A stretch of DNA of 64,000 bases from an uncultured Planctomycetales bacterium. Lineage in GTDB: Bacteria > Omnitrophota > Gorgyraeia > Aquiviventales > Aquiviventaceae. The notes below the pieces were generated by a model. The model did not search any database. It saw only the letters and a list, made by a program, of their open reading frames with translations, and had not been told where the DNA came from. Positions 1-62,322 of the stretch are shown one piece after another. The stretch spans positions 41,654 to 105,653 of the forward strand of contig CAYJTP010000001.1 of the NCBI GenBank assembly GCA_964373175.1, given 5' to 3'. A program made the position numbers and the translations under genes. Every line of letters begins with the position of its first letter. The first letter of the stretch is position 1.

Positions 1-179
1 TGAAGGGCGGTCGTACAGGAGGAGGTCGCCACGGCATCCCCCGCTCCCACATAGCGAGCGAAGGCCTCTTCGAACTCCGCCACCCTCGGCCCCTGCGATA
101 CCCAACCGGTTTCAAGGACCTTCACGACCGCCTCGGCTTCAGCAGCCGTCAACGATGGCCTCGTGATAGGGATCCTCAT
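1..179 (-). CDS. DegT/DnrJ/EryC1-family sugar aminotransferase, N-terminal fragment (gene continues beyond window start)
   Basis: Reverse-strand translation from ATG at 179: MRIPITRPSLTAAEAEAVVKVLETGWVSQGPRVAEFEEAFARYVGAGDAVATSSCTTAL, a typical DegT N-terminus. The ATG overlaps the TGA of the upstream epimerase gene (ATGA). No stop before coordinate 1. Confidence 0.6.
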   Translation of the reverse strand, partial: MRIPITRPSLTAAEAEAVVKVLETGWVSQGPRVAEFEEAFARYVGAGDAVATSSCTTAL

Positions 180-1174
180 CGCTGCCGCCCTATGAGCTGT
201 TGTTTGCGCCATTCGATGAGCTCTTGCAGCCCCTCCCGCAGTGGGACCTCAGCCCTGAAACCCAACAGCTGTTCAGCTTTCTCCGTGCTTCCGACCCGAT
301 GCTGGACGAAGGTCTGGCCCTGCGGTCGATGCTCAGGCAGGAGCAAGGACCCAGTCAGGTCCAGGAGCTCCCGCACCAGTTCGTTGAGGGTGGTGTGAAC
401 CCCCATGCCGATATTGAACGCCTCATCGGTGGCAGAAGCTTTGAGCGCCATCACGTTAGCCCGGGCCGCATCCCCCACGAAGATGAAGTCGTAGGACTGG
501 GAGCCATCCCCGTAGATGAGGGGGGGCTGTCCCTCGTCGATCCGATCCAGCGTCTTCATGATCACGTTCGTATACGCACCGCGATCATCTTGACGAGGCC
601 CATAGACGTTCATGTACCGAAGCGCCACGTATTCCAACCCATAGCGATGGGAAAAGGCTCGGCACATCTGCTCGCCGGCAATCTTCGTCGCCCCATAGAA
701 CGTTCGATTTGCGAACGGATGCTCTTCGGTCATGGGCACCTGGAGGGCATCGCCGTAGACGGAAGCCGAGGAGGAGTAGACCAACCGCTTGACCTTGTTG
801 GCCACGCACGCCTCCAGCACATTGAAGGTGCCCTGAACGTTGACCTCGAACGCCGATCTCGGGTAGTCCTGACAGTGCAACAGCCAGAGCGCTGCCAGAT
901 GCACGACGCAGTCCACATCTCGCATCGCGGCGTTGAGCACATCAGCATGCAGGATGTTGCCACCCAGTTCGTAGATCGTCACGCGAGGATCTCGAAGTGC
1001 GGCTTCGAGATTCTTCAGGTTCCCCCTTGAAAAGTCGTCGTACACGATCACCTGCGCAACCTCCTCTTGTGTGAGGAGGTCGACCACGTGAGAACCGATA
1101 AAACCGGCTCCTCCAATGACGAGAACGCGCTTTCCCTTAAGGTCCATCCGGTTGGAGGTCTTCTCGCTGCTCAC
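176..1174 (-). CDS. NAD-dependent epimerase/dehydratase (SDR family, UDP-sugar 4-epimerase-like)
   Basis: 332 aa. N-terminal [15 protein letters not shown] Rossmann motif; YGATK (YxxxK) catalytic motif; overall UDP-glucose 4-epimerase-like layout. Confidence 0.85.
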   Translation of the reverse strand: MSSEKTSNRMDLKGKRVLVIGGAGFIGSHVVDLLTQEEVAQVIVYDDFSRGNLKNLEAALRDPRVTIYELGGNILHADVLNAAMRDVDCVVHLAALWLLHCQDYPRSAFEVNVQGTFNVLEACVANKVKRLVYSSSASVYGDALQVPMTEEHPFANRTFYGATKIAGEQMCRAFSHRYGLEYVALRYMNVYGPRQDDRGAYTNVIMKTLDRIDEGQPPLIYGDGSQSYDFIFVGDAARANVMALKASATDEAFNIGMGVHTTLNELVRELLDLTGSLLLPEHRPQGQTFVQHRVGSTEKAEQLLGFRAEVPLREGLQELIEWRKQQLIGRQR

Positions 1175-2240
1175 CGTAGGCCCGCCAGCCGAACAGGCCT
1201 GTGGCGGTGACCCTCGAGCGGTCGAGCTGCGCGCGGCTCAGCCAGCTGTCAAGATCCCGGGCATCGTAATAGAAGCGGATGGGTGCCGTGAGGCGATCGA
1301 ACCAGTCCGCCCACACCACCTGAAATGGGTAGCGGCTATACACCTTGAGTCTCGGAAATGCAACCCTTCTGACCAAGGGTCCGAGGAACGGGAGTGTCGA
1401 CGTGACCTGATACGGCACGATAAAGCCTGCCCAGTCTACCGCCGCTGACACAAATGAGATCACCTGTTGAGCTCCCTTGGGTAATCGGGTTGTGACAGTC
1501 CGCGCACACTCCAGCGTGAAGTTCACGACCGGACGACTCTTGCTATAGACCCAGATGAAGACTGAGCCTCCAGGCTTGACCAGCGAGGGCAGGCAGCGGA
1601 ATCCCGCTTCTGGGTCAGGCAGGTGATGGAGGACGCCGATACTATAGGCAAAGTCAAAGCCCCTGTGACGAAACGGCAGCCGATACAGGTTCGCTTGAAC
1701 CAAGTGCACGTTCGGCAAGTGCTGGGTGTTGCGCCTTGCGACATCGATGGCCGCACCGATATCGACGCCGACCATTTCGGCGCCCAGGGTGGCTGCGTTA
1801 TAGATGTGCCGCCCAAACCCACACCCCACGTCGATGCCCACCTTGCCAGGGAAGAACGATTCATCGACTGGCTCGATGTAGTAGAGGAAGTTTTCACGGA
1901 AGTCGGTGACCATCTCGGAGAACAAGGTCCACTGGTACCCAAAACTCTCCCGTGTCTTCTCGATGATCCGAACGAAGCCGTCCCGAGGTTTCTCTGCTGC
2001 CTCAACTGTCCTGTTCCGTCCGAGCCGAACCCCGTACCGATCTCTCAACGATGGCCAGAGGTCAAAGGCGTTCTCCAGCATACGGGGAATGCCGTTGACG
2101 ATCGGGTAGCTCAATCCGCAGCGGCACTCGAGCAGCCCTTCGAGGACTTCGTCTCGCCCTAGTGACTCGACAAAGGGGGTCAGCTCGAGCGTCCCCAAAT
2201 ATCCCGGACAGCGAAGCAGCTCAACGAGTAGACCGCGCAT
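1137..2240 (-). CDS. class I SAM-dependent methyltransferase with N-terminal Trm112-like zinc-ribbon domain
   Basis: 367 aa. N-terminus ...RCPGY...ECRCGLSYPIVNGIPRML resembles a Trm112/DUF343 ribbon. GIDVGCGFGRH is a SAM-binding motif I. Confidence 0.8.
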   Translation of the reverse strand: MRGLLVELLRCPGYLGTLELTPFVESLGRDEVLEGLLECRCGLSYPIVNGIPRMLENAFDLWPSLRDRYGVRLGRNRTVEAAEKPRDGFVRIIEKTRESFGYQWTLFSEMVTDFRENFLYYIEPVDESFFPGKVGIDVGCGFGRHIYNAATLGAEMVGVDIGAAIDVARRNTQHLPNVHLVQANLYRLPFRHRGFDFAYSIGVLHHLPDPEAGFRCLPSLVKPGGSVFIWVYSKSRPVVNFTLECARTVTTRLPKGAQQVISFVSAAVDWAGFIVPYQVTSTLPFLGPLVRRVAFPRLKVYSRYPFQVVWADWFDRLTAPIRFYYDARDLDSWLSRAQLDRSRVTATGLFGWRAYGEQREDLQPDGP

Positions 2241-2254
2241 ACGACCCTCTCAGA

Positions 2255-3322
2255 CTACCTCAACCCCAGCAGGCTTCGCAGCGACGCCTGGTGGTGGGTG
2301 GCCCATACCAGTGGCCCTGTCAGCTTCAGACGCATGAGCACATTGAGCATGACGAAGATGCCATGTTGGACAAACCCAGTTCGGGAGGCTTCGAGTTGTT
2401 GAAGCACCTGCTGAAACTCTTCGGCGCTGAGACGGTAATCCAGAATTTCAAAGAGCGTCTGAGCAGCAGGCCGTTTCGATGCCCTCGAGTCCTGGTTTCT
2501 ACAGTAGAGGGCCAGCTCGTAGGCAAGCGCCCAAAACAGATAGCGATTGACCGAGGACCTCCATCGACTGACCATCTGAGCGTGGGCCGGCCAGCGCGTC
2601 ACGTGGGCATCGCAATAGCGAGAGAGGCACTCCTCATAATCACGGGCCATCGACACGATGGTCCGTGCGCTTTGTGACTGACGAAGCTGCCGACAGCGCC
2701 AGAGCAGCCTGTCCACATGGCCGATCTGCCAGCGTTCGGCAATCTGGAACCACACGACAAAGTCTCCGAACCCGATGGGTCCTTGCTCATCAAACCGAAT
2801 GTCACCGAGAGCCGTGCGCCGGATCATGGCACCCGGAATGCCGATAGAGGATCGTCCAGAGCGCATTGTGCGCTCAATGTACTCCAACCCCGGTGTGACG
2901 GACGGGACGTCGCACTCCCTGACGCCAAGGCACTCCCCCGCGTCGCTGATCAACTCCCAGTCGGAGCACACCACCCCCACCTCGGGATGGTGAGAGAGAA
3001 ACGAGACGTACTCGCTGACGAGTCGAAGACTCCGCTCATCATGGTCGTGGAAGAAACAGATGAACTCCCCATGGCTTTCGTCGATGCAGAAATTATGATT
3101 GCGGTAGAGACCCTGATTGTGAGGATGGCGCACATATCGGATACGCGAATCCGCTAACGCCGCCTGACGGCAGACAGCCTCTGTCTCATCTGCTGAACCA
3201 TTATCACTGATCAGGATCTCGAGCGGAGCGTAGTCCTGGCCTTGGATACTCCTGAGGCCCTCGCGCAGTGCAGAGGCCCGATTGTATGTCGGCACACAGA
3301 TTGAGACGAGGGGCTCGCTCAT
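2255..3322 (-). CDS. glycosyltransferase family 2
   Basis: 355 aa. VSICVPTYNRASALREGLRSIQGQDY...ILISDNGSADET is the classic GT2 (GT-A) N-terminal signature with a DxD-like region. Confidence 0.8.
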   Translation of the reverse strand: MSEPLVSICVPTYNRASALREGLRSIQGQDYAPLEILISDNGSADETEAVCRQAALADSRIRYVRHPHNQGLYRNHNFCIDESHGEFICFFHDHDERSLRLVSEYVSFLSHHPEVGVVCSDWELISDAGECLGVRECDVPSVTPGLEYIERTMRSGRSSIGIPGAMIRRTALGDIRFDEQGPIGFGDFVVWFQIAERWQIGHVDRLLWRCRQLRQSQSARTIVSMARDYEECLSRYCDAHVTRWPAHAQMVSRWRSSVNRYLFWALAYELALYCRNQDSRASKRPAAQTLFEILDYRLSAEEFQQVLQQLEASRTGFVQHGIFVMLNVLMRLKLTGPLVWATHHQASLRSLLGLR

Positions 3323-3332
3323 ACGACCATCG

Positions 3333-4172
3333 CTAGTCCGGAAAGTAAGTCATCACAATCGGCTTCCAGGTGCGGCAGAAGAGGTCTTCGCAGAGGACAT
3401 CTCGAAATCCCCACGCCTCCACGGACAACCATTCCATCACGGGCGAATGGCCAAGCCGTCTCAATGGGGCGTAATAAAACGTATAGTTCAAGAACCCTGC
3501 CGCGAAGAGACACTGGGTGAGCCGCCGCCGTGTCGTCAGCCCCACATGCTGAGGATCATCGGTCCCTGGGGCATGGGAGATGACATAGCGCATTGGATTC
3601 TGCAGCCGAAAGACCGCTCGGAGGCGTTTGTAGAGCAACGAGAGCCTCAGGTAATTCAAGTTTGGCGTCTTGATCACCAAGGGGGCACCGGGCTTGAGGC
3701 ACCTCCGCGCTTCTTTCAGGACCTCCACCTTCACGTCATCGGTCACGTGCTCCATGAAATCGCCGGAAATGGCCCCGTCAAAGAAATGATCGGGAAAATC
3801 CAGATGACGGGCGTCCCCGCAGCGGGCCTCCCCTTGGATGCCGAACCGTTTGAGGTACTCGTTCGCTTTGACGATATGTTGTTCTTCCAGATCTTGGCCG
3901 TACACGATGGCGCCTTGAAGACCACAGTAGACCATCATGGCCCCATCCCCGCATCCAATATCGAGAATCCTCTTGGAGGGACGCGGATCCAGCAGGTGAA
4001 GGGCAACATCCTTGAGCCGCAGGAAATCGACATTCTTCCAACAACGCTGGTGAGACCGATCGCCACCCAGCACATCGGTCTCATTCAGATAGAAGTACCC
4101 TTTGAGCCAACCATCCTGCGGGTACTGATCGCGCACCAGTTGGTTCTGGTCGTGTCCCTTTACCTCAGGCAT
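3333..4172 (-). CDS. class I SAM-dependent methyltransferase
   Basis: 279 aa. ILDIGCGDGAMM motif I, then an acidic motif II (ISGDFMEHV) and LKPGAPLVI motif. Confidence 0.75.
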   Translation of the reverse strand: MPEVKGHDQNQLVRDQYPQDGWLKGYFYLNETDVLGGDRSHQRCWKNVDFLRLKDVALHLLDPRPSKRILDIGCGDGAMMVYCGLQGAIVYGQDLEEQHIVKANEYLKRFGIQGEARCGDARHLDFPDHFFDGAISGDFMEHVTDDVKVEVLKEARRCLKPGAPLVIKTPNLNYLRLSLLYKRLRAVFRLQNPMRYVISHAPGTDDPQHVGLTTRRRLTQCLFAAGFLNYTFYYAPLRRLGHSPVMEWLSVEAWGFRDVLCEDLFCRTWKPIVMTYFPD

Positions 4173-4187
4173 GGTTCTTCTCCTATC

Positions 4188-5396
4188 CTATCCATGGAGC
4201 ATCTCTCGGTAGAGCGCCAAGTACTTCTCAACCCCTTTTTCCAGATCGAAATACCTCTCGGCGACCCGCCGGCAGCGACGCCGCAGCTCTTCTCCTTCTT
4301 GAAGCAGTTGACGTAACTGAGACACGGCCAAACGGTAGGAATCGTGGGACAGGGTCCGAACGACCACCCCTACCCTCTCTCGCTCGATGAGCGTGTCGCA
4401 GTCGCCCACCCCTGCGGTGATCACAATGGGGACGCCACAGGCCAACGACTCTCCCACCTTGGTAGGGCAGGCAGCACGTGCGGAGCTGACAGGCTTCACG
4501 AGACACAAGCTGGCTCTTGCATGCCGGAGTGCCCCAGGGACCTCCTCATGGGGCAGGGAGTGGATTCGATACAATCGGGGATCAACGGGAAACCGCTTCT
4601 GATCTATCCGCCCATCGGTACTATAGGTGAGGAGTTCCCACTCTGCATCCGGAATCTGCTCCTGGACCAGGGAGAAAAAGGAGGACATCGCGTCAAGCGC
4701 ATACCACCCCTCCAACGACCCGATATGCACGAGTTTAAAGCCCTTCCCGTTGTTCTGGGAAAGATCCTCAGCCAGGGTAAATCGATTCAGATTGACACAG
4801 GTGGGGATCGCCACCGTGGGAACCTGGATGCCCCGTTCTGCTAACCGAGCATCGAGGATGTTCTTTCCGGCTTCGGAGAGGATCACGATCCCATCTGCGG
4901 CCTGAAAGAAGCGGCGTTCGCACCACTTCGTTGTCCGATAGAGCATCCCGTTTGTCTTCCACAGTCCTCCTTCAACCCGTTGCTCCGGCCAAAATCCCCG
5001 GAGATCAAACAGAAAGCGCGCCCGAGTCAGGTGTGTGACCCACAAGGCGAGCAGGGCCACCACATAGCCCCTGGCGTGAACAATGTCAGGTCGCCATCGG
5101 CTGCAAATCTTCCTCGTTGCCACAAGTCCCTGAAGCAGATCCCACACCGTTGACATCACGGGGGGTCGCTTGTGGTAGCGAAGGGGCAGCCAATGAATCC
5201 GTTGACTCCTGAGATGGCGGCGACATCTCGAGAGGTCATCGTCAGAGAGGGTCGTCTTTTCAAAGCTGACGACGAATAGCTTGATGCCTCCTCGGGCGAA
5301 CCGCTCCAGGTACGGAACAACCTGAGAACGGCCCAACGGATCGAGCAACCCATCGTATGAAAGGTAGAGACAGCGAACTCCAACGGTCCTGTCCAT
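4188..5396 (-). CDS. glycosyltransferase family 4 (GT-B, retaining)
   Basis: The track ORF (4188..5753) has a low-complexity N-terminal extension. Internal Met MDRTVGVRCLYLSYDGLLDPLGRSQVVPYLE (residue 120, coordinate 5396) coincides with the stop of the upstream gene. The C-terminal half has the GT4 E-x7-E-like region (PTKVGESLACGVPIV). Confidence 0.8.
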   Translation of the reverse strand: MDRTVGVRCLYLSYDGLLDPLGRSQVVPYLERFARGGIKLFVVSFEKTTLSDDDLSRCRRHLRSQRIHWLPLRYHKRPPVMSTVWDLLQGLVATRKICSRWRPDIVHARGYVVALLALWVTHLTRARFLFDLRGFWPEQRVEGGLWKTNGMLYRTTKWCERRFFQAADGIVILSEAGKNILDARLAERGIQVPTVAIPTCVNLNRFTLAEDLSQNNGKGFKLVHIGSLEGWYALDAMSSFFSLVQEQIPDAEWELLTYSTDGRIDQKRFPVDPRLYRIHSLPHEEVPGALRHARASLCLVKPVSSARAACPTKVGESLACGVPIVITAGVGDCDTLIERERVGVVVRTLSHDSYRLAVSQLRQLLQEGEELRRRCRRVAERYFDLEKGVEKYLALYREMLHG

Positions 5397-6853
5397 CAGA
5401 CAGCCTCTCGGGACGGTTCTCGCTGAAGCCCTAAGGCTGTCAGGAAAAGGAGGAGTGGCCACACGGACGCCCGGTGTCGAAAGAGCGTCCCGATGTTTCC
5501 CTCCAGTAGGGCCATTGCACTGCAAAACACGAGAATGATGGTCAGGATCAACTGTTGCCCTGGAGACCCCAAGATCGCCCTGGTAGCTCCTCGGAAGGCG
5601 AAGAACAGGAGTGGATACCAGAGGAGCATTTCCAGGGATCCGAGAAGCTCTGTCGAGGAGCGCGCCATCCACGGAGCGGGCAGGGTGAGCACTCCCACCA
5701 GACCAATCGGCAAGAACATGACCACCTTCACCATCGTATCCAAGCGAACCCATTCAAAAAACGGGGTGCGGGCATCGAGCATCCGGACCCTTCTTGAGTA
5801 TTCGATCCATCCTGCGAGCTTGTTCGGCTCAAGAGCCTGTTCCACGATTGCCCGCTGAAAGACCATCGTGTCCACATCTCGACACAACCGTAATAATGGA
5901 CCAGGAACCTTTCCGGAAGAGATCGAGTAACACGTGAATACCGCTGCCGCGAGGAACACTACCCTCAGCATTCTGATATGAACAACCCCATACAACACGC
6001 AATAGATGAGAAGCGCAGCCAGAAACAACGAACCGATGAAGGGATTGACCTTGGCCAGTACCCATGTCACCCCAAGTCCCGCAGCCCAGGTGATCCCGCG
6101 TCCTCGCCGGAATGGGAAAAGGAAAAGAGCCAGGGCCGTCAGCAGCAACGTGAACGACATCGGTTCTTTGAGATTCTGTGTCGACCAAAGAAAAAGGGAA
6201 GGCCAAAAAGCCGTCAGGAGTCCTGCCGCTCGGGCGGCGCGTTCCCGTAGGTACAGTCGGGCAATCCAGTAGGCCAAGATCCCCGCCCATGAGCCAAAGA
6301 GGCAATTCACGCCGAAGAAGGTCAGGGGGTGATAGCCAAGCCAGTAGGCGACAAGCCCGTTCCAGTAATCAAAGGCCACCCCCGCCGCACCGGACAAGCT
6401 CACAGAACCGAGTGCCTCGGGAGTGGGAAATTCACCCCGCTTCCAATGCTCTGCTAGCCAATAGCCGTTGGCGGCATAGCCGTAACCATCTGCAACGAAA
6501 AAGCCCCCGTTCTGGAACATGCCCATCGGTGTCTCGTACCAGATCCTCGGGCAAACACCATACAAGAGCAGGGCGACGATCACCCTCGTCAACAGCGCGG
6601 TCAGGAAGAGTCGTCGCACCCACTTGCTTTGAACAGGCTCGAGTCGCTGAAGCAACACGAGGGAACACAGCGTCCCTGCCCCTAACGCCACCCAGCCCAT
6701 CCTCAGTGGGGAAGGACTGATCGCCACCAGACACCCCAACAGGCTTAAGCCCAGAAGCCGAACCCCCCCTCGGTGCCGACGCGCAAACGCCAACACCTGG
6801 CTATTCCCCCACTGGCAGCGGAAGAAGCCACCCCCCAGCAGGATGCTACTCAT
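5396..6853 (-). CDS. polytopic inner-membrane protein, O-antigen polymerase/ligase-like or GT-C-like (function uncertain)
   Basis: About 486 aa, highly hydrophobic with at least 10 predicted helices, W/Y/G-rich loops and a large loop (GYGYAANGYWLAEHWKRGE...). The first codon of the track ORF is TTG at 6868; an ATG (MSSILLGGG) at 6853 is preferred. Confidence 0.45.
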   Translation of the reverse strand: MSSILLGGGFFRCQWGNSQVLAFARRHRGGVRLLGLSLLGCLVAISPSPLRMGWVALGAGTLCSLVLLQRLEPVQSKWVRRLFLTALLTRVIVALLLYGVCPRIWYETPMGMFQNGGFFVADGYGYAANGYWLAEHWKRGEFPTPEALGSVSLSGAAGVAFDYWNGLVAYWLGYHPLTFFGVNCLFGSWAGILAYWIARLYLRERAARAAGLLTAFWPSLFLWSTQNLKEPMSFTLLLTALALFLFPFRRGRGITWAAGLGVTWVLAKVNPFIGSLFLAALLIYCVLYGVVHIRMLRVVFLAAAVFTCYSISSGKVPGPLLRLCRDVDTMVFQRAIVEQALEPNKLAGWIEYSRRVRMLDARTPFFEWVRLDTMVKVVMFLPIGLVGVLTLPAPWMARSSTELLGSLEMLLWYPLLFFAFRGATRAILGSPGQQLILTIILVFCSAMALLEGNIGTLFRHRASVWPLLLFLTALGLQREPSREAV

Positions 6854-10426: not shown

Positions 10427-10434
10427 CGCTGATG

Positions 10435-11703: not shown

Positions 11704-11725
11704 GGCGAGAACCCAAGGATCTCCA

Positions 11726-12628: not shown

Positions 12629-12639
12629 GCGTGCGAGAA

Positions 12640-14082: not shown

Positions 14083-14101
14083 TTCTTCTCTCCTCGTCTC
14101 G

Positions 14102-15262: not shown

Positions 15263-15927
15263 CAGGGAGTCCTCCGCTTTTCCAAGACCATCACGTAATA
15301 CATGTTCCACCAGAACGAGAGCTTGCGAAACGGTAGTGGGTAGGCCTCGACCACGTTAAAATCTGCCGCCAAGCGGTGCATGAGGCGTGGTGTAGTGAAG
15401 GTCACATGATCGGGATAGCGGGGCGGCCATTTCAGCAGGAGCATCCGTCCCAACGTCATAGTCAGATCATTCGGCACAAGGAGCATCACCCGCCCCCCAG
15501 CTTTCAACACTCGATGCGCCTCGTTCAGGACCACATCGGGCCTCTGGACATGTTCCAGCACCGCGATGAGCAGGACCACATCGACAGAGTTACCCTGAAA
15601 GGGCATCGCGTAGAGGTCGGCGCAGATCACCTTGCCGTGAGGGTTCTCAAACTTTTTCAGCCGTGTCCAGGAGACATCGAGTTGAATCGGGCGGATGTCG
15701 CTCCCTCGGAAGAAGAACCCTTCGCCGCATGCGCCTTCCACAATGATCTCCGCTGGGAACTGTCTGAGATGGTGCATGGTCTCGCGGACACAGAGACGGT
15801 AGAACCATCCGACAACACCTACGCATTGCTGATCATGGCCGTGAGCCTGAGCCACTTCTTCGTGGAGCAGGCGCTCCTGGAGCTGTTCCGCTGACTCCGA
15901 CGCGACTAAAGATGTGTTCACGCTCAT
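15262..15927 (-). CDS. class I SAM-dependent methyltransferase (Methyltransf_11-like)
   Basis: Start at MSVNTSL (ATGA overlap with upstream stop). VVLLIAVLEHVQRPDVVLNEAHRVLKAGGRVML is a typical motif II/III region. Confidence 0.75.
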   Translation of the reverse strand: MSVNTSLVASESAEQLQERLLHEEVAQAHGHDQQCVGVVGWFYRLCVRETMHHLRQFPAEIIVEGACGEGFFFRGSDIRPIQLDVSWTRLKKFENPHGKVICADLYAMPFQGNSVDVVLLIAVLEHVQRPDVVLNEAHRVLKAGGRVMLLVPNDLTMTLGRMLLLKWPPRYPDHVTFTTPRLMHRLAADFNVVEAYPLPFRKLSFWWNMYYVMVLEKRRTP

Positions 15928-53325: not shown

Positions 53326-53363
53326 GGGAAGGTTGTGCTCTAGGTCACTGGGTGAGATGTCTT

Positions 53364-54416: not shown

Positions 54417-54502
54417 CTGGTGTTCTTCAACCGCTCCTTACTACACGGTACGTCACGACAGGGAGGAATCACGTGCTGCAGGAGCTGGCTAAGAGAGCCA
54501 CT

Positions 54503-55162
54503 TCAAAGAATCGCGCTCGCTGGCTTAGATGAAGAGGCGGCTTGCTTTCGCACGATTTCTTTGACCTCTTGGCCAGTCTGCTCGAAACGCCGGCCACAGC
54601 GTGCACAGCGTCCAGTGGCATGGGAGACTACCGGTGTAAACGGAAGCCGCTGCCCACACACGCACATCCATCCCTGAAGTCTCGCCGGGTTACCGTACAT
54701 CAGTGCAAACGCCGGCACATCGTGCGTGACCACCGCACCGGCTCCGATGAATGCCTGCTCCTCAATCGTCAGGCCGCAGACGATCGTCGCATTCGCGCCA
54801 ATGCTCGCTCCGCGCCGGACACGTGTTGGTATGTATCCCGTCGCCGGGTCCTTGGGGAACGCTGAGCGGGGATCCTTCACATTGGTAAAGACAGCCGAAG
54901 GACCGCAGAAGACGTCGTCCTCCAGGGTCACCCCCGCGTAGATCGACACGTTATTCTCGATCTTCACCCGGTTGCCAATACTGACCCCCTTACCGATCAA
55001 CACGTTTTGCCCTAGCCGGCAGTCACGACCGATGCGCGCACCGCCCATCACGTGCGAAAAATGCCACACGTGCGTCCCTGGTCCGATCACCGCGCCAAGA
55101 TCCACCACGGCCGTGGGATGAATCATAACCGCCTGCTTGGCAGATTTCAGAGCCTGACCCAT
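54503..55162 (-). CDS. wbpD: hexapeptide-repeat (left-handed beta-helix) sugar N-acetyltransferase, WbpD/PglD-like, with C-terminal zinc ribbon
   Basis: Repeated [LIV]G..x..x hexapeptides (IGRDCRLGQNVLIGKGVSIGNRVKIENNVSI). C-terminal CVCG...CARCG. Confidence 0.75.
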   Translation of the reverse strand: MGQALKSAKQAVMIHPTAVVDLGAVIGPGTHVWHFSHVMGGARIGRDCRLGQNVLIGKGVSIGNRVKIENNVSIYAGVTLEDDVFCGPSAVFTNVKDPRSAFPKDPATGYIPTRVRRGASIGANATIVCGLTIEEQAFIGAGAVVTHDVPAFALMYGNPARLQGWMCVCGQRLPFTPVVSHATGRCARCGRRFEQTGQEVKEIVRKQAASSSKPASAIL

Positions 55163-56214
55163 GCGCCTCCACGATCCATCGACTGCTGGGCCGCATCCAG
55201 CACCCGCAGCACCCGCAAGCCGCCCTCACCGTCGCTGAGCGGTTGCTTCCCTTGGCGGACACACTCCAAGAAGTGTTCACACTCAAGCTTCAGCGGCTCA
55301 GTCAAGTCGATGCGGGGAATCCGGATGTCACCGCTGCGCAGCGTGATCCACCAGTCACCGTACGAATCATAATCACGCATCGCCCCCTTATCGTAGATGC
55401 GCAGCTTCTCGGTCGGCTCCATGTCATCGAACGTCACCATCTTCTGGCTGCCTACCACGGTCACCTTGCGAATCTTGTGCGGATCGAGCCAACTCAGGTG
55501 GATGTGGGCGAGTGGCTCGTCTGAAAACTTCAGCGTCACGAAGACGACGTCCTCAACCTTCTCCTGGACGTAGCACGCGCCGTGCGCCGCGACAGCAACG
55601 GGCAGTTCCCCGAGCAGATCGAGAATCATCGAGACATCGTGAGAGCCAAGGCTCCACAGCACATTCTCATCTCTACGGATCTGCCCGAGGTTGAGCCGCT
55701 GCGTATAGATGTAGTGCACCGTCCCGAGCTCACCAGATTCCACCAAGCGCTTGAGCGCTAGAAAGGCGGGGTGGTATCGCAAGAGATGGCCAACCATCAG
55801 GCACCGGCATTGCACTTTGGCCAACTTGATACACTGCTCTGCATCAGCCAACAGGAGCGCAACGGGTTTTTCGATGAACACATGCTTGCCCGCCTCGAGT
55901 GCCTGCAGGCCAAACTGAGCATGGGTCACCGCTGGGGTCGCAATCACCACCGCCTCGATCGATTCGTCTGAAAAAATGGGGGCGGTGGTCTTGACATACC
56001 GAACCTTAGGAAATGCGCGCCGCATGGCGTCCAGCCGTTCGTCCAGGATGTCGCAGCAATAGACGAGTTCGGACCCGGGTAATTGGTGAAACTCCCGCAC
56101 GAGATTCTTGCCCCAGTCCCCACACCCAATCACCGCCAGGCGTACAGGCGCTGTTGTCTCGGCGCGATCTGCAGATCTGCGTGTGGTTCTTGGGGCGGCC
56201 GCACGCACAGTCAT
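55147..56214 (-). CDS. wbpB: Gfo/Idh/MocA oxidoreductase, WbpB-like UDP-N-acetylglucosaminuronate 3-dehydrogenase candidate
   Basis: [20 protein letters not shown] motif. Adjacent to the LbH acetyltransferase, as in WbpB-WbpD pairs. Start at the ATG in an ATGA overlap. Confidence 0.75.
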
Positions 56215-57167
56215 CGGACCACCGACGCAAGGGACTGGGCGAACCAGGCAATGCTGCGCTGGAGGCCGTCCGACAACGTGGTCTTCGGCTCCCACCCTTT
56301 GAGCGTTCTCCTGGCCACACTGATGTCAGGGCGACGCTGCTTCGGATCGTCCTGCGGGAGTGACCGGAATTCAATCCGGCTCTTGCTCTTCGTTCCCTGA
56401 ACGTGCTTGAGAATGGTTTCTGCGAGACGGAGGATGGTCCACTCCTCGGGGTTGCCAAGGTTCACTGGGTCGGGGTGTGAGATGGTCATAAGCTGGGTGA
56501 TGCCTTCGATCAAATCATCAATGTAGCAGAAGCTGCGGGTCTGGCTCCCGTCGCCAAAGACGGTCAGGGGCTCCCCGCGCAAAGCCTGCGTGATGAAGGT
56601 GGGGATGGCGCGGCCGTCGTCCATCCTCATCCGGGGTCCAAACGAATTGAAGATGCGAGCGATCCGTGTCTCGACGCCATGTTCGCGGTGATAGGCCATC
56701 GTGAGGGCTTCCGCGAACCGTTTGGCCTCATCGTAGACGCCGCGAGGCCCGACTGGGTTGACGTGGCCCCAGTAGGATTCGGGCTGGGGATGGACCTGCG
56801 GATCGCCGTAGACCTCCGAAGTTGACGCCAAGAGGAACTTGGCCTGCTTGGCCTTGGCGATCCCCAGGGCATTAAGGGTTCCAAGGGAGCCGACCTTGAG
56901 GGTTTGGATCGGGTACTTGAGGTAATCGTGTGGACTGGCGGGCGAGGCGAAGTGCAGGACGTAGTCGACAGGACCATCCGGCTCGTACGGTTTGCTGACG
57001 TCGTGTTGCACAAACGCGAATCGGGCGTGGGTCTTGAGGTTGGCGACGTTGTCCATCTTTCCCGTGATCAGGTTGTCCACGCAGAGCACCTCATGGCCGC
57101 CTTCGATCAGCCGGTCGCACAGGTGCGAGCCGATGAACCCTGCCCCGCCGGTGACGAGGATTCTCAT
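56211..57167 (-). CDS. UDP-glucuronate decarboxylase (UDP-xylose synthase) / extended-SDR NDP-sugar dehydratase family
   Basis: [29 protein letters not shown] (YxxxK), UXS/ArnA-C-terminal-like length and pattern. Confidence 0.8.
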
Positions 57168-57418
57168 GAAGCCAGCGGTCCTCCTTCAGCGGCTTCGAGG
57201 AACGGCTGCTCTAGCGTCACCGTGAAGTCCAGGAACCGATGCAGGAGCTTGATGCCCCGATGCTTGTTCGAGGTGCGCTTGATGAAGCCTTTGCGTTCCA
57301 GGGCGTTGAGGCGGTCGACGGCGGATTTGTACGAGGCGATCTGGCAGTTGGCTTGGATCTCGCGGATAAAGGGGGCGCGCTGGTTCTGCGCCAGATAGCG
57401 CTGGATATACTCCAGCAC
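57164..57418 (-). CDS. small LexA-N-terminal-domain-like winged-helix DNA-binding protein (putative transcriptional regulator)
   Basis: 84 aa. [45 protein letters not shown] closely follows the LexA DNA-binding-domain consensus (..PPSIREIA..LGL.S.S.V..HL.ALE.KGYI.R). No peptidase domain. Confidence 0.55.
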
Positions 57419-57506
57419 GGCCTGTTGTTTACTGGTAAGTTTGGTCAGTCCAGGGCCTTAAGCAGAGTAAAAATTACTATCAACCGGTGAGCAATTATTA
57501 ACATAC
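57419..57506 (-). promoter_or_regulatory. AT-rich intergenic region upstream of the LexA-like gene with inverted repeat AGTAA-N3-TTACT; candidate internal promoter/operator
   Basis: The only AT-rich stretch in the cluster. Minus-strand reading contains TTGATA and TA-rich hexamers compatible with a sigma70-like promoter. Confidence 0.35.
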
Positions 57507-58655
57507 TTAGGGAACCTTGTCAAACGCTTTCTGGGCCTTCGGGGCCCCCAGAATCTGCTGGATGTCCTCCACCACACGACGCAACTGGGCACTCGAAAGT
57601 TCTGGATAGAGGGGAAGCGCCAGGACCTCGGCAGCTGCGCGTTCGGCCACAGGGTATCGCTCTGGCCGGCTGCCCAGAAAGGCGAGGGCTGGCTGGTGTG
57701 GGAGGATAAGTGGATAGACCACCTGGACACCGATACCTTCCTGGGTTAACCCTTCGTAGAGCCTCTCCCGTTGGGAGCACCGGATCACATACAATGAAAA
57801 CACGTGCCAGCACTCAGGGCGTTCCTCTGGCAGGGTGAGCCACTCGGTTAAGCCAGTGCTGGTGAACAGCGCCCGATACGTCTGAGCATGTTGCCGCCTG
57901 GCACGGGTCCATGCCTCGAGGTGGGGGAGCTTCGCCCGCAAGATCGCTGCCTGGAGTTCATCTAAGCGACTGTTCTTCCCCGGCAGGACGTGCACGTACT
58001 TCTCTCGACTGCCATGGACCCGAAGCAGACGAAGGCGCTCGGCGAGGTCGGCATCGTGAGTCACGACCAGTCCCCCGTCACCGTACGCCCCAAGAGGCTT
58101 GCTCGGATAAAAGCTGAAGCAGCCAGCACGGCCAAACGACCCCACAGGCACACCGCGATACCGCGCGCCGAGCGCCTGGGCACAGTCCTCAATCACCGCA
58201 AGATGGTGCCGTGTGGCGAATTCCATGAGGGGGGCCATGTCGCATGGGTGGCCATACAGGTGGACGGGGAGCACAGCCTTGGTTCGAGGGGTCAGCTGGG
58301 CTTCCAGGTGAGAAGGGTCGAGCGTAAAGGTCAGCGGATCAATGTCCACAAAGACCGGGATAGCCCCCATGGTGACAATCGCTTCCGCCGTGGCAAAAAA
58401 CGAAAACGCACTCGTGATCACCTCATCGTTGGGACCGATCCCACAAGCCCGCAAGGACAGCTCCAGCGCATCGGTCCCTGAGGCAACGGCAACGGCGTGC
58501 GTGGTGCCACAGTAGGCAGCCAGTTCCTGCTCGAGCGCTTCGACTTCGGGTCCAAGGATGAACTGTCCCTTGGCGAACACGCGCTGAATTGCCGCATCGA
58601 TCGCAGGTTTGAGGCTGGCGTACTGCGCCTTCAAGTCCACTAAGGGAATCTTCAT
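57507..58655 (-). CDS. wbpE: DegT-family aminotransferase (WbpE-like UDP-2-acetamido-2-deoxy-3-oxo-glucuronate aminotransferase candidate)
   Basis: MKIPLVDLKAQY... and FSFYPSKPLGAYGDGG (PLP lysine), 382 aa. Confidence 0.8.
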   Translation of the reverse strand: MKIPLVDLKAQYASLKPAIDAAIQRVFAKGQFILGPEVEALEQELAAYCGTTHAVAVASGTDALELSLRACGIGPNDEVITSAFSFFATAEAIVTMGAIPVFVDIDPLTFTLDPSHLEAQLTPRTKAVLPVHLYGHPCDMAPLMEFATRHHLAVIEDCAQALGARYRGVPVGSFGRAGCFSFYPSKPLGAYGDGGLVVTHDADLAERLRLLRVHGSREKYVHVLPGKNSRLDELQAAILRAKLPHLEAWTRARRQHAQTYRALFTSTGLTEWLTLPEERPECWHVFSLYVIRCSQRERLYEGLTQEGIGVQVVYPLILPHQPALAFLGSRPERYPVAERAAAEVLALPLYPELSSAQLRRVVEDIQQILGAPKAQKAFDKVP

Positions 58656-58676
58656 CGTATGGGGGTCCGAGGAGGA

Positions 58677-59630
58677 TCAGCGGCTTGCGGTGCGAGCGTA
58701 GCCGTTTTGAAACCACGCCACCGTATGCGCCAAGCCTTCAGCAAACCGAACGGTTGGCTGCCACTTCAGGTGCTGAGCAGCTTTGGAAATATCCGCGAGG
58801 GTTCGACGCACATCTCCAGGACGCGGCGGGGTAAATTGTGGCGAGATCGACAGCCCCAGGACCGTATTGAGCTGAGCAAGCAGATCTAAGACCGAGTAGC
58901 TTTCTCCGCAGCCGACATTGAAGACTTCCCCACTCACGCCTGGCGCGGTGGCGGCTCGAATGGTCACCTCGACGACATTCTCAATATACGTGAAGTCACG
59001 CGATTGCAGCCCATCCCCATGCACCGGTGGCGATTCGTGTCGCAGTAAGCACGTGATGAACTTCGGCACCACCACCGCATACTCGTTCTCCAGACTTTGC
59101 CGCGGACCAAACACATTGAAATAGCGCAAGGCGACCGTCTCCAGTCCGAAGCTGCGGGCAAAGAGTTGGCAGTAGTGCTCTGCGCTCAGTTTGGACATCG
59201 CATAGGGGGAAACCGGCGCCACCGGTTGCACTTCTCGTAGGGGGACGCGGTCCGTCTCGCCATACACGGAACTGGACGATGCAAACACGACCCGTTTCAC
59301 CTTCGCCGCGACAGCCGCCGCCAGGAGATTCACGGTTCCCAGCACATTGACCTCGGTGTAGCCGCAGGGATCCTCCATCGATTTGGGCACGCTGCGCCAG
59401 GCAGCCTCGTGGATCACATAGTCGATGTCTTTCACAGCTCGTCGGACAGCCTGTCGGTCACGGATATCCCCGCTGATGAGTTCGAGGCGGGTCTGGACAC
59501 TCGCGAGGTTGTCCGATCGGCCGGTGGAGAGATCATCCAGAACCCGGACCGCGTGTCCCTCGCGGACGAGCCGCTCGACAATGTGAGACCCAATGAATCC
59601 GGCACCGCCGGTGACCAGATACCGGGCCAT
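58677..59630 (-). CDS. NAD-dependent epimerase/dehydratase (UDP-sugar 4-epimerase-like, WbpP-type)
   Basis: [30 protein letters not shown] (YxxxK). Confidence 0.85.
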   Translation of the reverse strand: MARYLVTGGAGFIGSHIVERLVREGHAVRVLDDLSTGRSDNLASVQTRLELISGDIRDRQAVRRAVKDIDYVIHEAAWRSVPKSMEDPCGYTEVNVLGTVNLLAAAVAAKVKRVVFASSSSVYGETDRVPLREVQPVAPVSPYAMSKLSAEHYCQLFARSFGLETVALRYFNVFGPRQSLENEYAVVVPKFITCLLRHESPPVHGDGLQSRDFTYIENVVEVTIRAATAPGVSGEVFNVGCGESYSVLDLLAQLNTVLGLSISPQFTPPRPGDVRRTLADISKAAQHLKWQPTVRFAEGLAHTVAWFQNGYARTASR

Positions 59631-59653
59631 GCTAGCGAAGGCCTGGGACTGTG

Positions 59654-61021
59654 TTAGAGTGTCGTGACATGAGGCGCGGCGCTACGTCCCCGACCGTACT
59701 GGTTGCGGGTGTCCACAATCACTGGGGCGTGGCGCAGCACAAGGTCATAATCGACATTTGAATGGTTCGTCAGCACCACCACACAATCAGTCTGTTTGAG
59801 CAGGCTGGCCTCCAAGGGCATGGAGCGGACCATACGACCATTGAGCTGGACGGTGGGCACGTAGGGATCATGATACCGCACCTCAGCCCCACGCCGCTGC
59901 AGTTCCTGGGCCACCTCAAACGTGGGAGAGTCGCGGGTATCGTTGACGTCTTTCTTGTACGCCAGCCCAAGCAGGAGGATCCGCGAGCCGTTGAGCGATT
60001 TGCGATGGTCATTGAGCGCAGCCGCGACTTTTTCCACAACGTGGTGCGGCATGTACCGATTGGTCTGATCCGCCAGCTCGATAAACCGCGCTTCAAACCC
60101 GTGAAGCCGAGCTTTCCAGGCGAGGTACATCGGATCCGAGGGGATGCAATGTCCGCCGATCCCGGGACCTGGATAAAAGCCCATGAACCCAAACGGCTTG
60201 GTCTTCGCGGCCTCGATGACCTCCCAGACGTCGAGTCCGAGCTTGTCACACATCAGGGTAATCTCGTTGACTAAGCCGATGTTGACCGCTCGAAAGGTGT
60301 TCTCCAGCAGCTTCACCATCTCGGCGACCTTGGTGGAGGAGACCGGGACAACGCGCGTGACGACCTGGCGGTAGAGCAACTGGGCGACTTTCAAGCACGT
60401 GGGTGTGACCCCGCCGATGACCTTGGGGATCGTCCGGGTCGTAAACTGGGCATTGCCCGGATCAATCCGTTCCGGCGAGAAGGCGAGGCAAAAGTCGCGG
60501 CCGACTGTGAATCCTCGCGCCTCCAGCATCGGGAGGATCACCTCATCGGTCGTTCCAGGATAGGTCGTGCTCTCAAGGACGATCAACTGGCCAGGGCGGA
60601 GGGCGTTAGCAATCTCTTGTGCGGCTGAGAGGATATAGGAGATATCCGGCTCGCGGGTTTTTCGTAACGGGGTCGGCACACAGATGATGATCGCATCCAG
60701 GTCAGCCAACTGGGTAAAGGTCGCTGTCGCCGCGAGCCGTTTCGAGCGGACCAACTGGGTGAGTTTCCCGCTGGCAACATCCGCAATGTAGGAGCGACCG
60801 GCGTTCACCTGCGTGACACGGTTGAGGTCCAGATCGATACCCGTGACACGAAACCCTTCGGTGGCAAACTCGACGGCCAAGGGCAATCCCACATAGCCCA
60901 AGCCGATGACGCCAATCCGCGCGGTCTTCGTGCGCAGCCGCTGCTCCAGTTGCTTAAGGCTGGTAGGCTGGTGGGAAGATGCCGACGAATGTTTAGCAGT
61001 GCGAAGGCGCGCCGGGCTCAT
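59654..61021 (-). CDS. wbpA: UDP-N-acetyl-D-glucosamine/mannosamine 6-dehydrogenase (WbpA/WecC family)
   Basis: IGVIGLGYVGLPLAVEFA...; nucleotide-sugar dehydrogenase three-domain layout with catalytic Cys region (GGHCIPSDP). Confidence 0.8.
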   Translation of the reverse strand: MSPARLRTAKHSSASSHQPTSLKQLEQRLRTKTARIGVIGLGYVGLPLAVEFATEGFRVTGIDLDLNRVTQVNAGRSYIADVASGKLTQLVRSKRLAATATFTQLADLDAIIICVPTPLRKTREPDISYILSAAQEIANALRPGQLIVLESTTYPGTTDEVILPMLEARGFTVGRDFCLAFSPERIDPGNAQFTTRTIPKVIGGVTPTCLKVAQLLYRQVVTRVVPVSSTKVAEMVKLLENTFRAVNIGLVNEITLMCDKLGLDVWEVIEAAKTKPFGFMGFYPGPGIGGHCIPSDPMYLAWKARLHGFEARFIELADQTNRYMPHHVVEKVAAALNDHRKSLNGSRILLLGLAYKKDVNDTRDSPTFEVAQELQRRGAEVRYHDPYVPTVQLNGRMVRSMPLEASLLKQTDCVVVLTNHSNVDYDLVLRHAPVIVDTRNQYGRGRSAAPHVTTL

Positions 61022-62322
61022 TCCACCATAGGCCCCCGACCCACACCGACATAGCGAAATCCCAGGCGCCGCAAGGCGGCTGGATCGTAGAGATTGCGCC
61101 CATCCGCCACGAACGGCTGCCGCATCAGCTTCTTGATCCGGTTGAAATCGAGTCCCTTGAATTCATCCCATTCAGTGACAATTGCCAGACAATCCGCGCC
61201 GCACGCCGCATCATAGACATCCTTGCAGAACGTCACGCCCTGAAACACCCCATCGGCATGCGGCATGGCCTTGGGGTCGAACACCCGAACCTGCGCCCCT
61301 TCTTGCTGGAGCATGCGGATGATGTCAATGGCAGGGGCTTCGCGCAGATCATCCGTGTTGGGCTTAAACGCCAGGCCGAGCACCCCGATCGTCTTGTTGT
61401 TCAAATTCCAGAGGCTTTTGGCAATCTGTTTCACAAAGAGTTCCCGTTGCTCCTGGTTCACATGGGCAACGGCTTTCAAGATGGGCATCTCGACGCCAAG
61501 TTTTTCCGCGATGCGGATAAAGGCGGAGACATCCTTGGGAAAACAGTAGCCCCCATAGCCCACGCCGGCATCCAAGAACGCCCGGCCGATCCGTTTGTCC
61601 AGCCCCATGCCTTCAGTGACCTTAACGACATCAGCCCCGACCCGATCGCAGAGCTGCGCAATCGCATTGATGTACGAGACTTTCATGGCCAGAAATGAGT
61701 TGGAGGCGTGCTTGATCAGTTCGGCGCTCTTGATATCGGTGATGACCAAGGGGGCCTGCAACGGTTTGTAGAGTTTCACCAACGTATCTTTCGCCCGCTT
61801 GGTTTCCACCCCCAGGACGACACGGTCCGGATGTAGGAAGTCCTGGATCGCGGATCCCTCCCGCAGGAATTCGGGATTCGAGGCCACATCGAAGGCGACC
61901 CCGCGGTGGGCCGCCACACGCATCGTGCGCTTGATCCACTCCCCTGTTTCCACCGGAACCGTGCTTTTCTCGACGATCAACCGATACGAACGTATGGCAT
62001 GGGCGATCTCGCGACAGACGTTTTCCACCGCGGACAGATCGGCCTCCCCATTGGGGCGAGCCGGGGTGCCGACACAAATAAATATGACCAGACTCTGCTC
62101 AGCCGCCTCCTTGATGGAGGAGACCAATCGAAGTCGCTTCTCACTCAAGCCCCGGTGGACGAGCTCCTCCAGCCCGGGCTCGTAAAACGGGACCTGCCCT
62201 TTCTTGAGGAGGGTGAGCTTCTTCTGGTCATGATCCACCATGACCACTTGATTGCCCAAATCGGCAAAACAGGCTCCCGTCACCAATCCCACATGACCGG
62301 CGCCCACAATGCTAATATCCAT
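61018..62322 (-). CDS. ugd: UDP-glucose 6-dehydrogenase
   Basis: MDISIVGAGHVGLVTGACFADLGNQV...; catalytic GYGGYCFPKD. Confidence 0.85.
   Translation of the reverse strand: MDISIVGAGHVGLVTGACFADLGNQVVMVDHDQKKLTLLKKGQVPFYEPGLEELVHRGLSEKRLRLVSSIKEAAEQSLVIFICVGTPARPNGEADLSAVENVCREIAHAIRSYRLIVEKSTVPVETGEWIKRTMRVAAHRGVAFDVASNPEFLREGSAIQDFLHPDRVVLGVETKRAKDTLVKLYKPLQAPLVITDIKSAELIKHASNSFLAMKVSYINAIAQLCDRVGADVVKVTEGMGLDKRIGRAFLDAGVGYGGYCFPKDVSAFIRIAEKLGVEMPILKAVAHVNQEQRELFVKQIAKSLWNLNNKTIGVLGLAFKPNTDDLREAPAIDIIRMLQQEGAQVRVFDPKAMPHADGVFQGVTFCKDVYDAACGADCLAIVTEWDEFKGLDFNRIKKLMRQPFVADGRNLYDPAALRRLGFRYVGVGRGPMVE

Follow-up and report, generated by a model that had tools for sequence, protein, structure and literature searches.

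A probable composite cell-surface glycan locus of at least 65 kb, with two predicted promoter sites, most likely from a member of the Omnitrophota

RESULTS

Gene organization of the window

The window analyzed here, that is, the whole stretch of 64,000 nt taken from contig CAYJTP010000001.1 (positions 41,654 to 105,653; GenBank assembly GCA_964373175.1), contains between its positions 1 and 62322 a dense run of genes, which an earlier note, made from the sequence alone, had described as a single glycan mega-operon. The data reported below indicate that this run is quite likely most of a composite locus for the synthesis and export of a cell-surface glycan, which is at least 65 kb long and has at least two promoter sites, rather than an established single operon. 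The listing of open reading frames (ORFs) showed that all long ORFs with high GC content at third codon positions (GC3) that tile the window are on the minus strand, and all window genes and promoter sites given below are on this strand. The GC content is even (0.54–0.62), and the GC skew is negative in every 2-kb block except one. The gene model consists of 57 genes, which are g1, encoding an LptD_2-like outer-membrane protein (62428–63975) and located outside the 1–62322 run, g2 to g55, and two small genes (57164–57448 and 15924–16124). The model was based on junction analysis, family alignments, and the gene calls on public contigs encoding identical proteins (L088, L090, and L091; L numbers designate related loci and contigs), and these calls match it for g11–g22, g37–g39, and g47–g55. 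About 99% of the segment from 176 to 62322 is coding, which agrees with the previously claimed succession of about 57 minus-strand genes with almost no intergenic DNA.

The 56 junctions between the modeled genes comprise 15 four-base overlaps (14 ATGA and one CTGA), five one-base overlaps (TGATG), 12 longer overlaps of 8–16 nt, 20 spacers of 0–25 nt, two spacers in the range of 26–60 nt (58 and 34 nt), and two spacers longer than 60 nt (105 and 86 nt). Hence, there are 20 strict start–stop overlaps of four bases or one base, or 21 when the ATGA at 176–179, which leads onto a gene cut by the window edge, is counted, so that the count of more than 20 given earlier only just holds. No RNA family was detected anywhere in the window by Rfam at gathering thresholds. 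As for markers of genomic islands or insertion sequences, the window contains no tRNA genes, and no long repeats except a 34-nt repeat inside g49.

The UDP-sugar and nonulosonic-acid modules

The Pfam and NCBIfam searches gave coherent support to the proposal that this is a glycan locus with several sugar-precursor modules. The genes g2–g9 (53364–62322) form a uridine diphosphate (UDP)-sugar module, in which g2 encodes a UDP-glucose 6-dehydrogenase (Ugd), g3 a second nucleoside diphosphate (NDP)-sugar dehydrogenase of the WbpA/TviB/WecC type, g4 a TviC/GalE-like epimerase, g5 a DegT aminotransferase, g6 a short-chain dehydrogenase/reductase (SDR), g7 a WbpB-like 3-dehydrogenase, g8 a hexapeptide N-acetyltransferase, and g9 a GFO oxidoreductase. 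The g6 product is probably of the UDP-glucuronate decarboxylase type, because it is 55–66% identical across many phyla and its gene usually adjoins that of Ugd. As judged from these families, g2–g9 resemble a route to UDP-2,3-diacetamido uronic acids.

The genes g21–g32 (27472–41014) correspond to a module for a nonulosonic acid of the pseudaminic-acid type with acetamidino and acyl decoration. They encode PseB, PseC, a GFO oxidoreductase, a WbuX amidotransferase, HisH, HisF/WbuZ, a formyltransferase-like protein, a GNAT acetyltransferase, a DUF4910/M28-like protein, a fusion of a cytidylyltransferase with a class-III aminotransferase, a NeuB-family synthase, and a GNAT–PseG fusion. The scores exceeded the NCBIfam cut-offs for PseB (g21, 489.5 versus 407.75), PseC (g22, 466.4 versus 423.5), PseG (C-terminal part of g32, 163.8 versus 153.55), WbuX (g24, 349.8 versus 203.2), HisH (g25, 221.8 versus 105.4), and HisF (g26, 303.3 versus 294.55), with g26 scoring 291.5 as WbuZ, just under the cut-off of 299.7. 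The three adjacent genes g24, g25, and g26 thus make up an acetamidino-forming trio of the WbuX/WbuY/WbuZ type. The remaining pathway candidates stayed under their cut-offs: the GNAT domains of g28 and of the N-terminal part of g32 gave 31.5 bits with PseH (cut-off 93), g31 gave 302.9 with PseI (cut-off 340) and 344.8 with NeuB (cut-off 399.65), and g35, which belongs to the next group of genes, gave 137.7 with PseF (cut-off 205.7).

This next group, g33–g38 (21614–27487), starts with g33, which encodes a surface-carbohydrate protein with a BFO_1060-type glycosyltransferase domain and matches TIGR04396 ("surface carbohydrate biosynthesis protein") with a score of 244 over a cut-off of 125. The genes g34–g38 constitute a second, ptm-like nonulosonic-acid set, consisting of a TIM-barrel isomerase-like protein, a cytidylyltransferase, a GFO oxidoreductase, an SDR, and a short NeuB. 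The products of g33 and g40, both of which contain the BFO_1060-type domain, are candidate nonulosonic-acid transferases. The short NeuB encoded by g38 (21614–22510) has 298 amino acids (aa) and aligns solely to positions 1–272 of the 329-position NeuB model. The C-terminal portion missing from g38 (positions 193–317 of the same model) has a match in the N-terminal part of g12, which is fused to a glycosyltransferase of family 2 (GT2).

The exporter, the chain-terminator candidate, and the glycosyltransferases

By Pfam and comparison with known structures, g19 and g20 (41004–43214) encode the ABC-2 permease Wzm and the ATPase Wzt with a C-terminal carbohydrate-binding domain. The g19 product scored 67.6 bits with ABC2_membrane (cut-off 26.9), and the g20 product scored 76.7 bits with ABC_tran and 37 bits with Wzt_C (cut-off 30.4); the NCBIfam matches of both proteins to Wzm/KpsM and Wzt/TagH were below the equivalog cut-offs. 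Residues 55–364 of g20, including the carbohydrate-binding domain, matched the Aquifex aeolicus Wzt structures 8dku and 7k2t (E=3.5e-67), with the alignment covering residues 34–350 of the 404-residue 8dku chain. The ABC exporter proposed in the earlier note is therefore a Wzm/Wzt pair, the Wzt of which resembles the O-antigen transporter of Aquifex.

The genes g39–g41 (17310–21611) encode a methyltransferase, a protein with the BFO_1060-like glycosyltransferase domain, and a 695-aa protein composed of a Zn-ribbon, an S-adenosylmethionine (SAM) methyltransferase, and an APH-type kinase. Pfam places the methyltransferase domain of g41 at residues 116–295 and the APH domain at 419–598, and g41 belongs to a family of 650–730-aa proteins with the N-terminal Zn-ribbon followed by these two domains. 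The kinase motif HGD..N..D is well preserved across 31 homologues, with G575 invariant and H574, D576, N581, and D593 conserved in at least 90% of them. An AlphaFold model of g41, built with 31 sequences, had a mean predicted local distance difference test (pLDDT) value of 85. When this model was compared with known structures using Foldseek, the WbdD entries 4azt, 4azs, 4ax8, 4uw0, and 4azw were the only hits that aligned over both domains (580–646 columns, E ~4e-9, 12–14% identity, template modeling (TM) score 0.2–0.3). In E. coli O9a, WbdD is reported to phosphorylate the chain end and then to methylate it (PMC3482155). Because g41 has the WbdD domain order, and the carbohydrate-binding domain of Wzt implies a capped chain end, the model suggests that g41 plausibly works like WbdD, which would reflect a shared architecture rather than family membership. 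Assignment of g41 to the WbdD family by sequence was rejected: a phmmer search against the PDB sequences returned generic methyltransferases only, with no WbdD at E≤0.001. Hence, of the earlier proposal of a chain terminator, the methyltransferase–kinase in the WbdD domain order stands, but a sequence-level match to WbdD does not. The g41 family is not tied to this type of exporter, since its member in Nitrosococcus is encoded in a polysaccharide locus that lacks Wzm/Wzt genes within 10 kb.

Further genes of the run are located on both sides of the above ones. The segment g12–g16 (44875–51356) encodes the NeuB-C-terminal-like domain fused to GT2 (g12, 49695–51356), a cytidylyltransferase fused to a methyltransferase (g13), a WaaA-like transferase of family 30 (GT30; g14, E=8e-18 with the WaaA structure 2xci), a cytidylyltransferase (g15), and a methyltransferase (g16). 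The genes g17 and g18 (43215–44878), which immediately precede those of the exporter, encode proteins of 265 and 287 aa, which had no Pfam or NCBIfam match and are 91–93% conserved in L087, a contig from another sample. The late genes g42–g55 (176–17310), with which the gene calls on L088 agree, encode two family 4 glycosyltransferases (GT4), one GT2, four methyltransferases, a DegT aminotransferase, a flavin amine-oxidase-like protein (g45), a GNAT, two GT-C/PMT_2-like membrane proteins (g47, and more weakly g50), an AsnB-type amidotransferase, a DUF4330 protein (g49), and an epimerase/dehydratase. The 34-nt direct repeat within g49 (7201–7234 and 7591–7624, 390 nt apart) is 91% identical between its copies, which suggests an internal domain duplication. 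An apparent gap between g42 and g43 is filled by a 66-codon ORF (15924–16124), which at its ATG shares 8 nt with the end of g42 and at its TGA overlaps the g43 ATG (ATGA). This ORF had no Pfam family and encodes only a Rossmann-type N-terminal segment with GxGxxG; a flavoprotein gene probably once stood here and was reduced to this remnant by cassette exchange.

The content of the locus also bears on the acceptor of the glycan. No Pfam match to Wzy_C, Bac_transf, or Glycos_transf_4 was found among the 57 window products; genes for a WaaL ligase and an initiating transferase may be located in other parts of the genome. The lack of a WaaL ligase in the window and the presence of two PMT_2-type GT-C proteins would also fit with a glycan that is attached to proteins, such as an S-layer protein or pilin, or by general O-glycosylation, with g47 and g50 serving as the transferases. 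The BFO_1060-type domain of g33 and g40 points in the same direction, as this family is named after a protein O-glycosylation gene of Tannerella forsythia, and pseudaminic acid is a common protein glycan. On the other hand, the locus begins beside the gene for the LptD_2-like outer-membrane protein in all close relatives, it encodes a WaaA-like GT30 and a Wzt with an O-antigen-type carbohydrate-binding domain, and lipid A is also modified by PMT_2/ArnT-like enzymes. Protein glycosylation thus appears unlikely as the function of this locus.

Relatives, extent, and mosaicism of the locus

Proteins identical to those of the window were found only on short metagenome contigs, and they are present in the sequencing runs ERR3478686, ERR4904390, and ERR4904392. 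When the Ugd protein (g2) was used for comparison, the closest genomes were metagenome-assembled genomes (MAGs) of Candidatus Omnitrophota, with a best identity of 69%. The gene order of the LptD_2-like protein, Ugd, the second dehydrogenase, an epimerase, in some cases an aminotransferase, and an epimerase, that is, g1-g2-g3-g4-(g5)-g6, recurs in many Omnitrophota MAG loci, and in the closest of them (L003, L006, and L076) the identities were 61–65% for g1 and 70–75% for g3. The best named homologues of g41 and g10 were also from "Candidatus Omnitrophica". The block g34–g41 is syntenic in the Omnitrophica MAG GCA_002787095.1, and the block g10–g15 is kept in L086 (55–81% identity) and L087.

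The locus does not end at position 1, and the window holds most but not all of it. The first 179 nt of the window contain the 5′ end of a further gene for a DegT-family aminotransferase, with an ATG (177–179) that overlaps the g55 stop. On L088, g55 is followed by a DegT gene (397 aa), another methyltransferase gene, and one further gene, all on the same strand. Because these co-directional genes follow g55, the glycan locus would extend past the window start to at least about 65 kb.

The comparison with L087 revealed a mosaic pattern. The window segment 44897–54430 is 97% identical to L087 at the nucleotide level, and the segment 54503–57168 is 89% identical. Upstream of g6, the content of L087 is different (carbamoyltransferase, DUF5989), and between g16 and g17 it has an extra TylF methyltransferase gene. 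The sequence comparison thus indicates that the locus is mosaic between close relatives, with cassettes exchanged within the run. The 86-nt spacer between g8 and g9 (54417–54502) lies exactly at the seam of the 97% and 89% blocks, and its counterpart in L087 (5500–5514) is only a 10-nt spacer. This spacer is likely a recombination junction. Complete genomes of Omnitrophota are reported to contain population-variable polysaccharide cassettes, for example of 25 kb, and to have glycosyltransferases of lipopolysaccharide (LPS) and capsule among their hypervariable loci (preprint 10.64898/2026.06.07.730766); the exchange between the window and L087 fits with such cassettes.

Promoter sites, a LexA-type gene, and the question of a single transcript

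A promoter-like site, P1 (TTGTGG-17-TATAAT, 62383–62411), was read from the sequence in the 105-nt spacer between g1 and g2. P1 was not listed by the promoter scan, the rule of which required at least four of six matches in the −35 hexamer. In L003, L006, L076, and L009, the corresponding place ahead of Ugd has TTGC..-16/17-TATAAT or TATACT sites. The promoter candidate near 62345–62385 in the earlier note is therefore real as a motif and is conserved in position among relatives. In the leader, an RfaH/ops (JUMPstart) element was also considered: GACGGTAG at 62361–62368 has seven of the eight ops bases, but it was rejected, as one-mismatch matches occurred 56 times in the window versus 48.7 expected.

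The claim that this was the only good promoter was not supported, in view of an internal sigma-70-like site, P2 (TTGACA-18-AATAAT, 57494–57523), which matches 11 of 12 consensus positions and was the best such site in the window (three 20-kb scans covering 4001–64000). Its −35 hexamer is located inside the last codons of g5. The AT-rich internal region at 57419–57506 that had been pointed out does exist, but it was misread: it holds P2 and precedes an overlooked gene. This small gene (57164–57448, about 94 codons) fills the apparent 339-nt gap between g5 and g6, its TGA overlaps the g6 ATG, and it encodes a stand-alone LexA-type winged-helix DNA-binding domain. The product matched Pfam LexA_DNA_bind (PF01726) over profile positions 2–65 of 65 with E=4e-17, and the DNA-binding domain of LexA (1lea) with E=3e-6. 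The S24 self-cleaving peptidase/dimerization domain is absent from this ORF, which ends 25–30 residues past the DNA-binding domain, at the g6 ATG. Since it lacks this C-terminal domain, the product is a relative of the LexA DNA-binding domain, and not a LexA. Orthologues are located directly upstream of the g6-type SDR gene in L086 (7510–7773), L087 (~83–442), L009 (13786–14025), and L024 (12882–13121), and in all four loci they are preceded by sites of the TTGAC[AGT]-N-TAA[C/T]AT type. Neither the ORF listing nor the public gene calls included the gene, and in the case of L087 a call was made on the opposite strand instead. Upstream of this gene, the window, L086, and L087 have the segment ATAGTAAT(T/A) in common, which could be the −10 region or an operator. 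Because the promoter and the regulator gene are conserved together across divergent loci, P2 would be a real internal start, and the locus likely has at least two promoters, P1 and P2.

The earlier note had proposed that the 62 kb form one polycistronic operon with a single promoter at about 62.35–62.39 kb and fixed expression ratios resulting from translational coupling. Several features are consistent with this proposal, because 32 of the 56 junctions overlap, just two spacers exceed 60 nt, P1 is conserved in position, there is no excess of terminator-like hairpins, and the lack of a terminator between g5 and P2 could permit read-through from P1. However, the counts of terminator-like sites equaled those in shuffled sequences in all three 20-kb blocks, so the scan is uninformative about the boundaries of transcription units. 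Moreover, the packing is not restricted to glycan genes. The four genes upstream of the glycan run on L001, encoding a GGDEF protein, a ROK kinase, a transaldolase, and the LptD_2-like protein, are on the same strand, and one pair among these non-glycan genes overlaps by 4 nt. When the 10-kb regions flanking Ugd were compared in 20 related Omnitrophota loci, one strand carried at least about 90% of the ORFs on both sides in most of them, and in L086 overlaps of 4 or 1 nt make up 12 of 18 junctions. Dense packing on one strand is thus characteristic of these genomes, and co-orientation and overlaps are not confined to glycan genes and reveal little about transcript structure. When it is also considered that the strongest sigma-70-like site of the window is internal and is conserved with a regulator gene in four other loci, that cassettes have been swapped within the run between close relatives, and that two probable non-glycan genes are embedded in it, the case for a single 62-kb mega-operon is weak, and we regard it as very unlikely.

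Embedded aromatic amino-acid genes and CTG start codons

Two genes in the run, g10 and g11 (51353–53367), were assigned by NCBIfam and homologues to a 3-deoxy-D-arabino-heptulosonate 7-phosphate (DAHP) synthase and a shikimate-dehydrogenase-like protein of 376 aa. The g10 product scored above the NCBIfam cut-offs (349 over 335 for NF006421, 312 over 268 for TIGR01361) and is 68–84% identical to DAHP synthases of Omnitrophota, Nitrospirota, and Acidobacteria. Its assignment as KdsA (Kdo-8-phosphate synthase; Kdo is 3-deoxy-D-manno-octulosonic acid) was rejected, because it gave 100 bits as KDO8PS versus 312–349 as DAHP synthase. The two genes are embedded with overlapping junctions between glycan genes, and their counterparts are at 10001–11988 in L086 and 6563–8577 in L087. 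In the relatives, they stay beside the genes for GT2, the cytidylyltransferase–methyltransferase, GT30, and the cytidylyltransferase. In another Omnitrophota MAG (L083/L084), the GT30 and cytidylyltransferase pair is preceded instead by a gene similar to dehydroquinate synthase and iron-containing alcohol dehydrogenase (Fe-ADH). The retention of g10–g15 as a block with overlapping junctions within the glycan loci of L086 and L087, as well as the dehydroquinate-synthase/Fe-ADH-like gene in this other MAG, could mean that g10 and g11 belong to a glycan pathway, in which a seven-carbon 3-deoxy-ulosonic acid would be made, activated by the adjacent cytidylyltransferases, and transferred by GT30. 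In contrast, g10 behaves as an ordinary DAHP synthase in the family searches, proteins of the g11 family (~370 aa) come after prkA-DUF444-spoVR in other phyla, that is, in non-glycan contexts, and Omnitrophota genomes are reported to be able to make aromatic amino acids (preprint 10.64898/2026.06.07.730766). After the homologues and their contexts had been traced, the heptulosonic-acid pathway was judged highly improbable. A housekeeping role is likelier, so that g10 and g11 are probably aromatic amino-acid genes embedded in the glycan run, and not every gene of this run is a glycan gene.

Three of the 57 genes have probable CTG start codons, which are the LexA-type gene (57446–57448), g10 (53365–53367), and g45 (14080–14082). 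In the LexA-type gene, no ATG, GTG, or TTG is located ahead of the domain; CTG alone is likewise available in L086, while the equivalent codon is ATG in L009 and L024. The CTG start of g10 gives the N-terminus LKDISP versus MKDISP in homologues, is preceded by GGAGGAGG, and forms the CTGA overlap with the g9 stop, and in L087 the g10 gene has the same CTG, with all changes in the N-terminal extension being synonymous. The start of g45 at 14082 restores the GxGxxG motif and is preceded by a GAGGAG Shine–Dalgarno sequence. Strong Shine–Dalgarno sequences are present at two of the three genes. Three CTG starts per 57 genes are many for bacteria, and they may reflect a habit of this lineage. A bolder combination of these observations would be two giant transcripts, the second comprising at least 52 genes and at least 57 kb and starting from the conserved promoter under the control of the CTG-initiated stand-alone LexA-type protein, which would represent a type of glycan-locus regulator not yet described in Omnitrophota, with CTG as a regular start codon of the lineage. 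We consider this whole combination distinctly unlikely.

DISCUSSION

The protein families encoded in the window suggest how the composite surface-glycan locus would work. Cytoplasmic enzymes would produce UDP-glucuronate and probably UDP-xylose, and enzymes of the WbpA/B/E/D type would produce a 2,3-diacetamido uronic acid. The Pse module would provide a cytidine monophosphate (CMP)-pseudaminic-acid derivative with acetamidino or other N-acyl groups, and the second module a second CMP-nonulosonic acid. At the inner face of the membrane, GT2, GT4, GT30, and BFO_1060-type transferases would use these precursors to build, on a lipid carrier, a heavily methylated polymer. The methyltransferase–kinase g41 would probably cap the chain, and Wzm/Wzt would export the polymer after the carbohydrate-binding domain of Wzt has recognized the capped end. 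The final acceptor is probably the lipid A–core, which would make the product an O-antigen-like polymer.

Several observations weigh against this reading or limit its detail. No initiating phosphoglycosyl transferase of the WecA/WbaP type, WaaL ligase, Wzx, or Wzy is encoded in the window, which makes the lipid-carrier step and the final acceptor matters of inference. The candidates for PseH, PseI, and PseF have the right folds but score under the equivalog cut-offs, which limits how closely the nonulosonic acids can be named. Besides the lack of a sequence match to WbdD, the g41 model has no long coiled coil ("ruler") after the kinase domain and ends at residue 695 within packed helices. P1 and P2 are sequence motifs, the support of which comes from conservation, and transcripts from P1 may read through P2, because no terminator-like site separates g5 from P2. 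Finally, the locus is most likely from Omnitrophota, as judged from best matches to MAGs at 61–75% identity.

The bacteria of the Omnitrophota have not been cultured, are very small, and probably depend on hosts. If the reading is right, about 65 kb of the genome of one Omnitrophota lineage would be devoted to a heavily modified, methylated surface polymer that contains nonulosonic acids, and the locus is a concrete target for metatranscriptomics and glycan analysis. A literature search found no paper that joins Omnitrophota and pseudaminic acid, and so this content appears to be new for the phylum. The known view of how such pathways work is unchanged by these data, while the surprising part of the earlier proposal, one promoter for one 62-kb operon, is unsupported.

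As to its type, the locus belongs with the surface polysaccharide loci that depend on an ABC transporter; it includes nonulosonic-acid modules, and all its parts are of known families. It is similar to the ABC-transporter-dependent O-antigen loci of E. coli O9a/O8, of the Klebsiella O-types, and of Aquifex aeolicus (Wzm/Wzt) in having Wzm together with a Wzt that bears a C-terminal carbohydrate-binding domain, a methyltransferase–kinase in the WbdD domain order within the locus, and glycosyltransferase and sugar-precursor genes on one strand. It differs from them in being about five to ten times longer, in having two nonulosonic-acid pathways, and in that neither WaaL nor an initiating transferase was seen in the window. 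Moreover, g41 is different from WbdD in having the N-terminal Zn-ribbon and in lacking the coiled-coil ruler and detectable sequence similarity.

As to its size, the locus is much longer than the common O-antigen and capsule loci, as the earlier note had stated, but a locus of this scale has a precedent in the rfb locus of Leptospira. The Leptospira rfb genes are almost all on one strand. In L. interrogans serovar Lai, this locus encodes 88 proteins (PMC10958091). Both are very large, the Leptospira one being an LPS locus, with conserved ends, a variable, cassette-like inner content, and a small gene for a transcription regulator. According to that paper, the Leptospira regulator is a MarR protein at the start of the locus, and the polymer is made by a Wzy-dependent route with dTDP-rhamnose genes (dTDP, deoxythymidine diphosphate). 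In contrast, the window has a Wzm/Wzt exporter, and its regulator consists of a LexA-type DNA-binding domain and is placed inside the locus.

The nonulosonic-acid modules resemble the pse/ptm genes of Campylobacter and the WbuX/Y/Z sets of the Legionella and Pseudomonas O-antigens, with which they share PseB, PseC, PseG, a NeuB-family synthase, and cytidylyltransferases, as well as the amidotransferase trio of WbuX, HisH, and HisF. The set of SDR, GFO oxidoreductase, cytidylyltransferase, and NeuB is also shared with ptm. On the other hand, the GNAT–PseG and cytidylyltransferase–class-III aminotransferase fusions are not typical of these model systems, and the modules of the window are part of an exporter-dependent polymer locus rather than of a flagellin glycosylation island. 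With respect to the polysaccharide cassettes described in Omnitrophota (preprint 10.64898/2026.06.07.730766), an exchange of this kind is also seen between the window and L087, while the window locus is more than twice as long as the 25-kb cassette, and its head, which consists of the LptD_2-like gene, Ugd, and the next genes, is conserved across the phylum.

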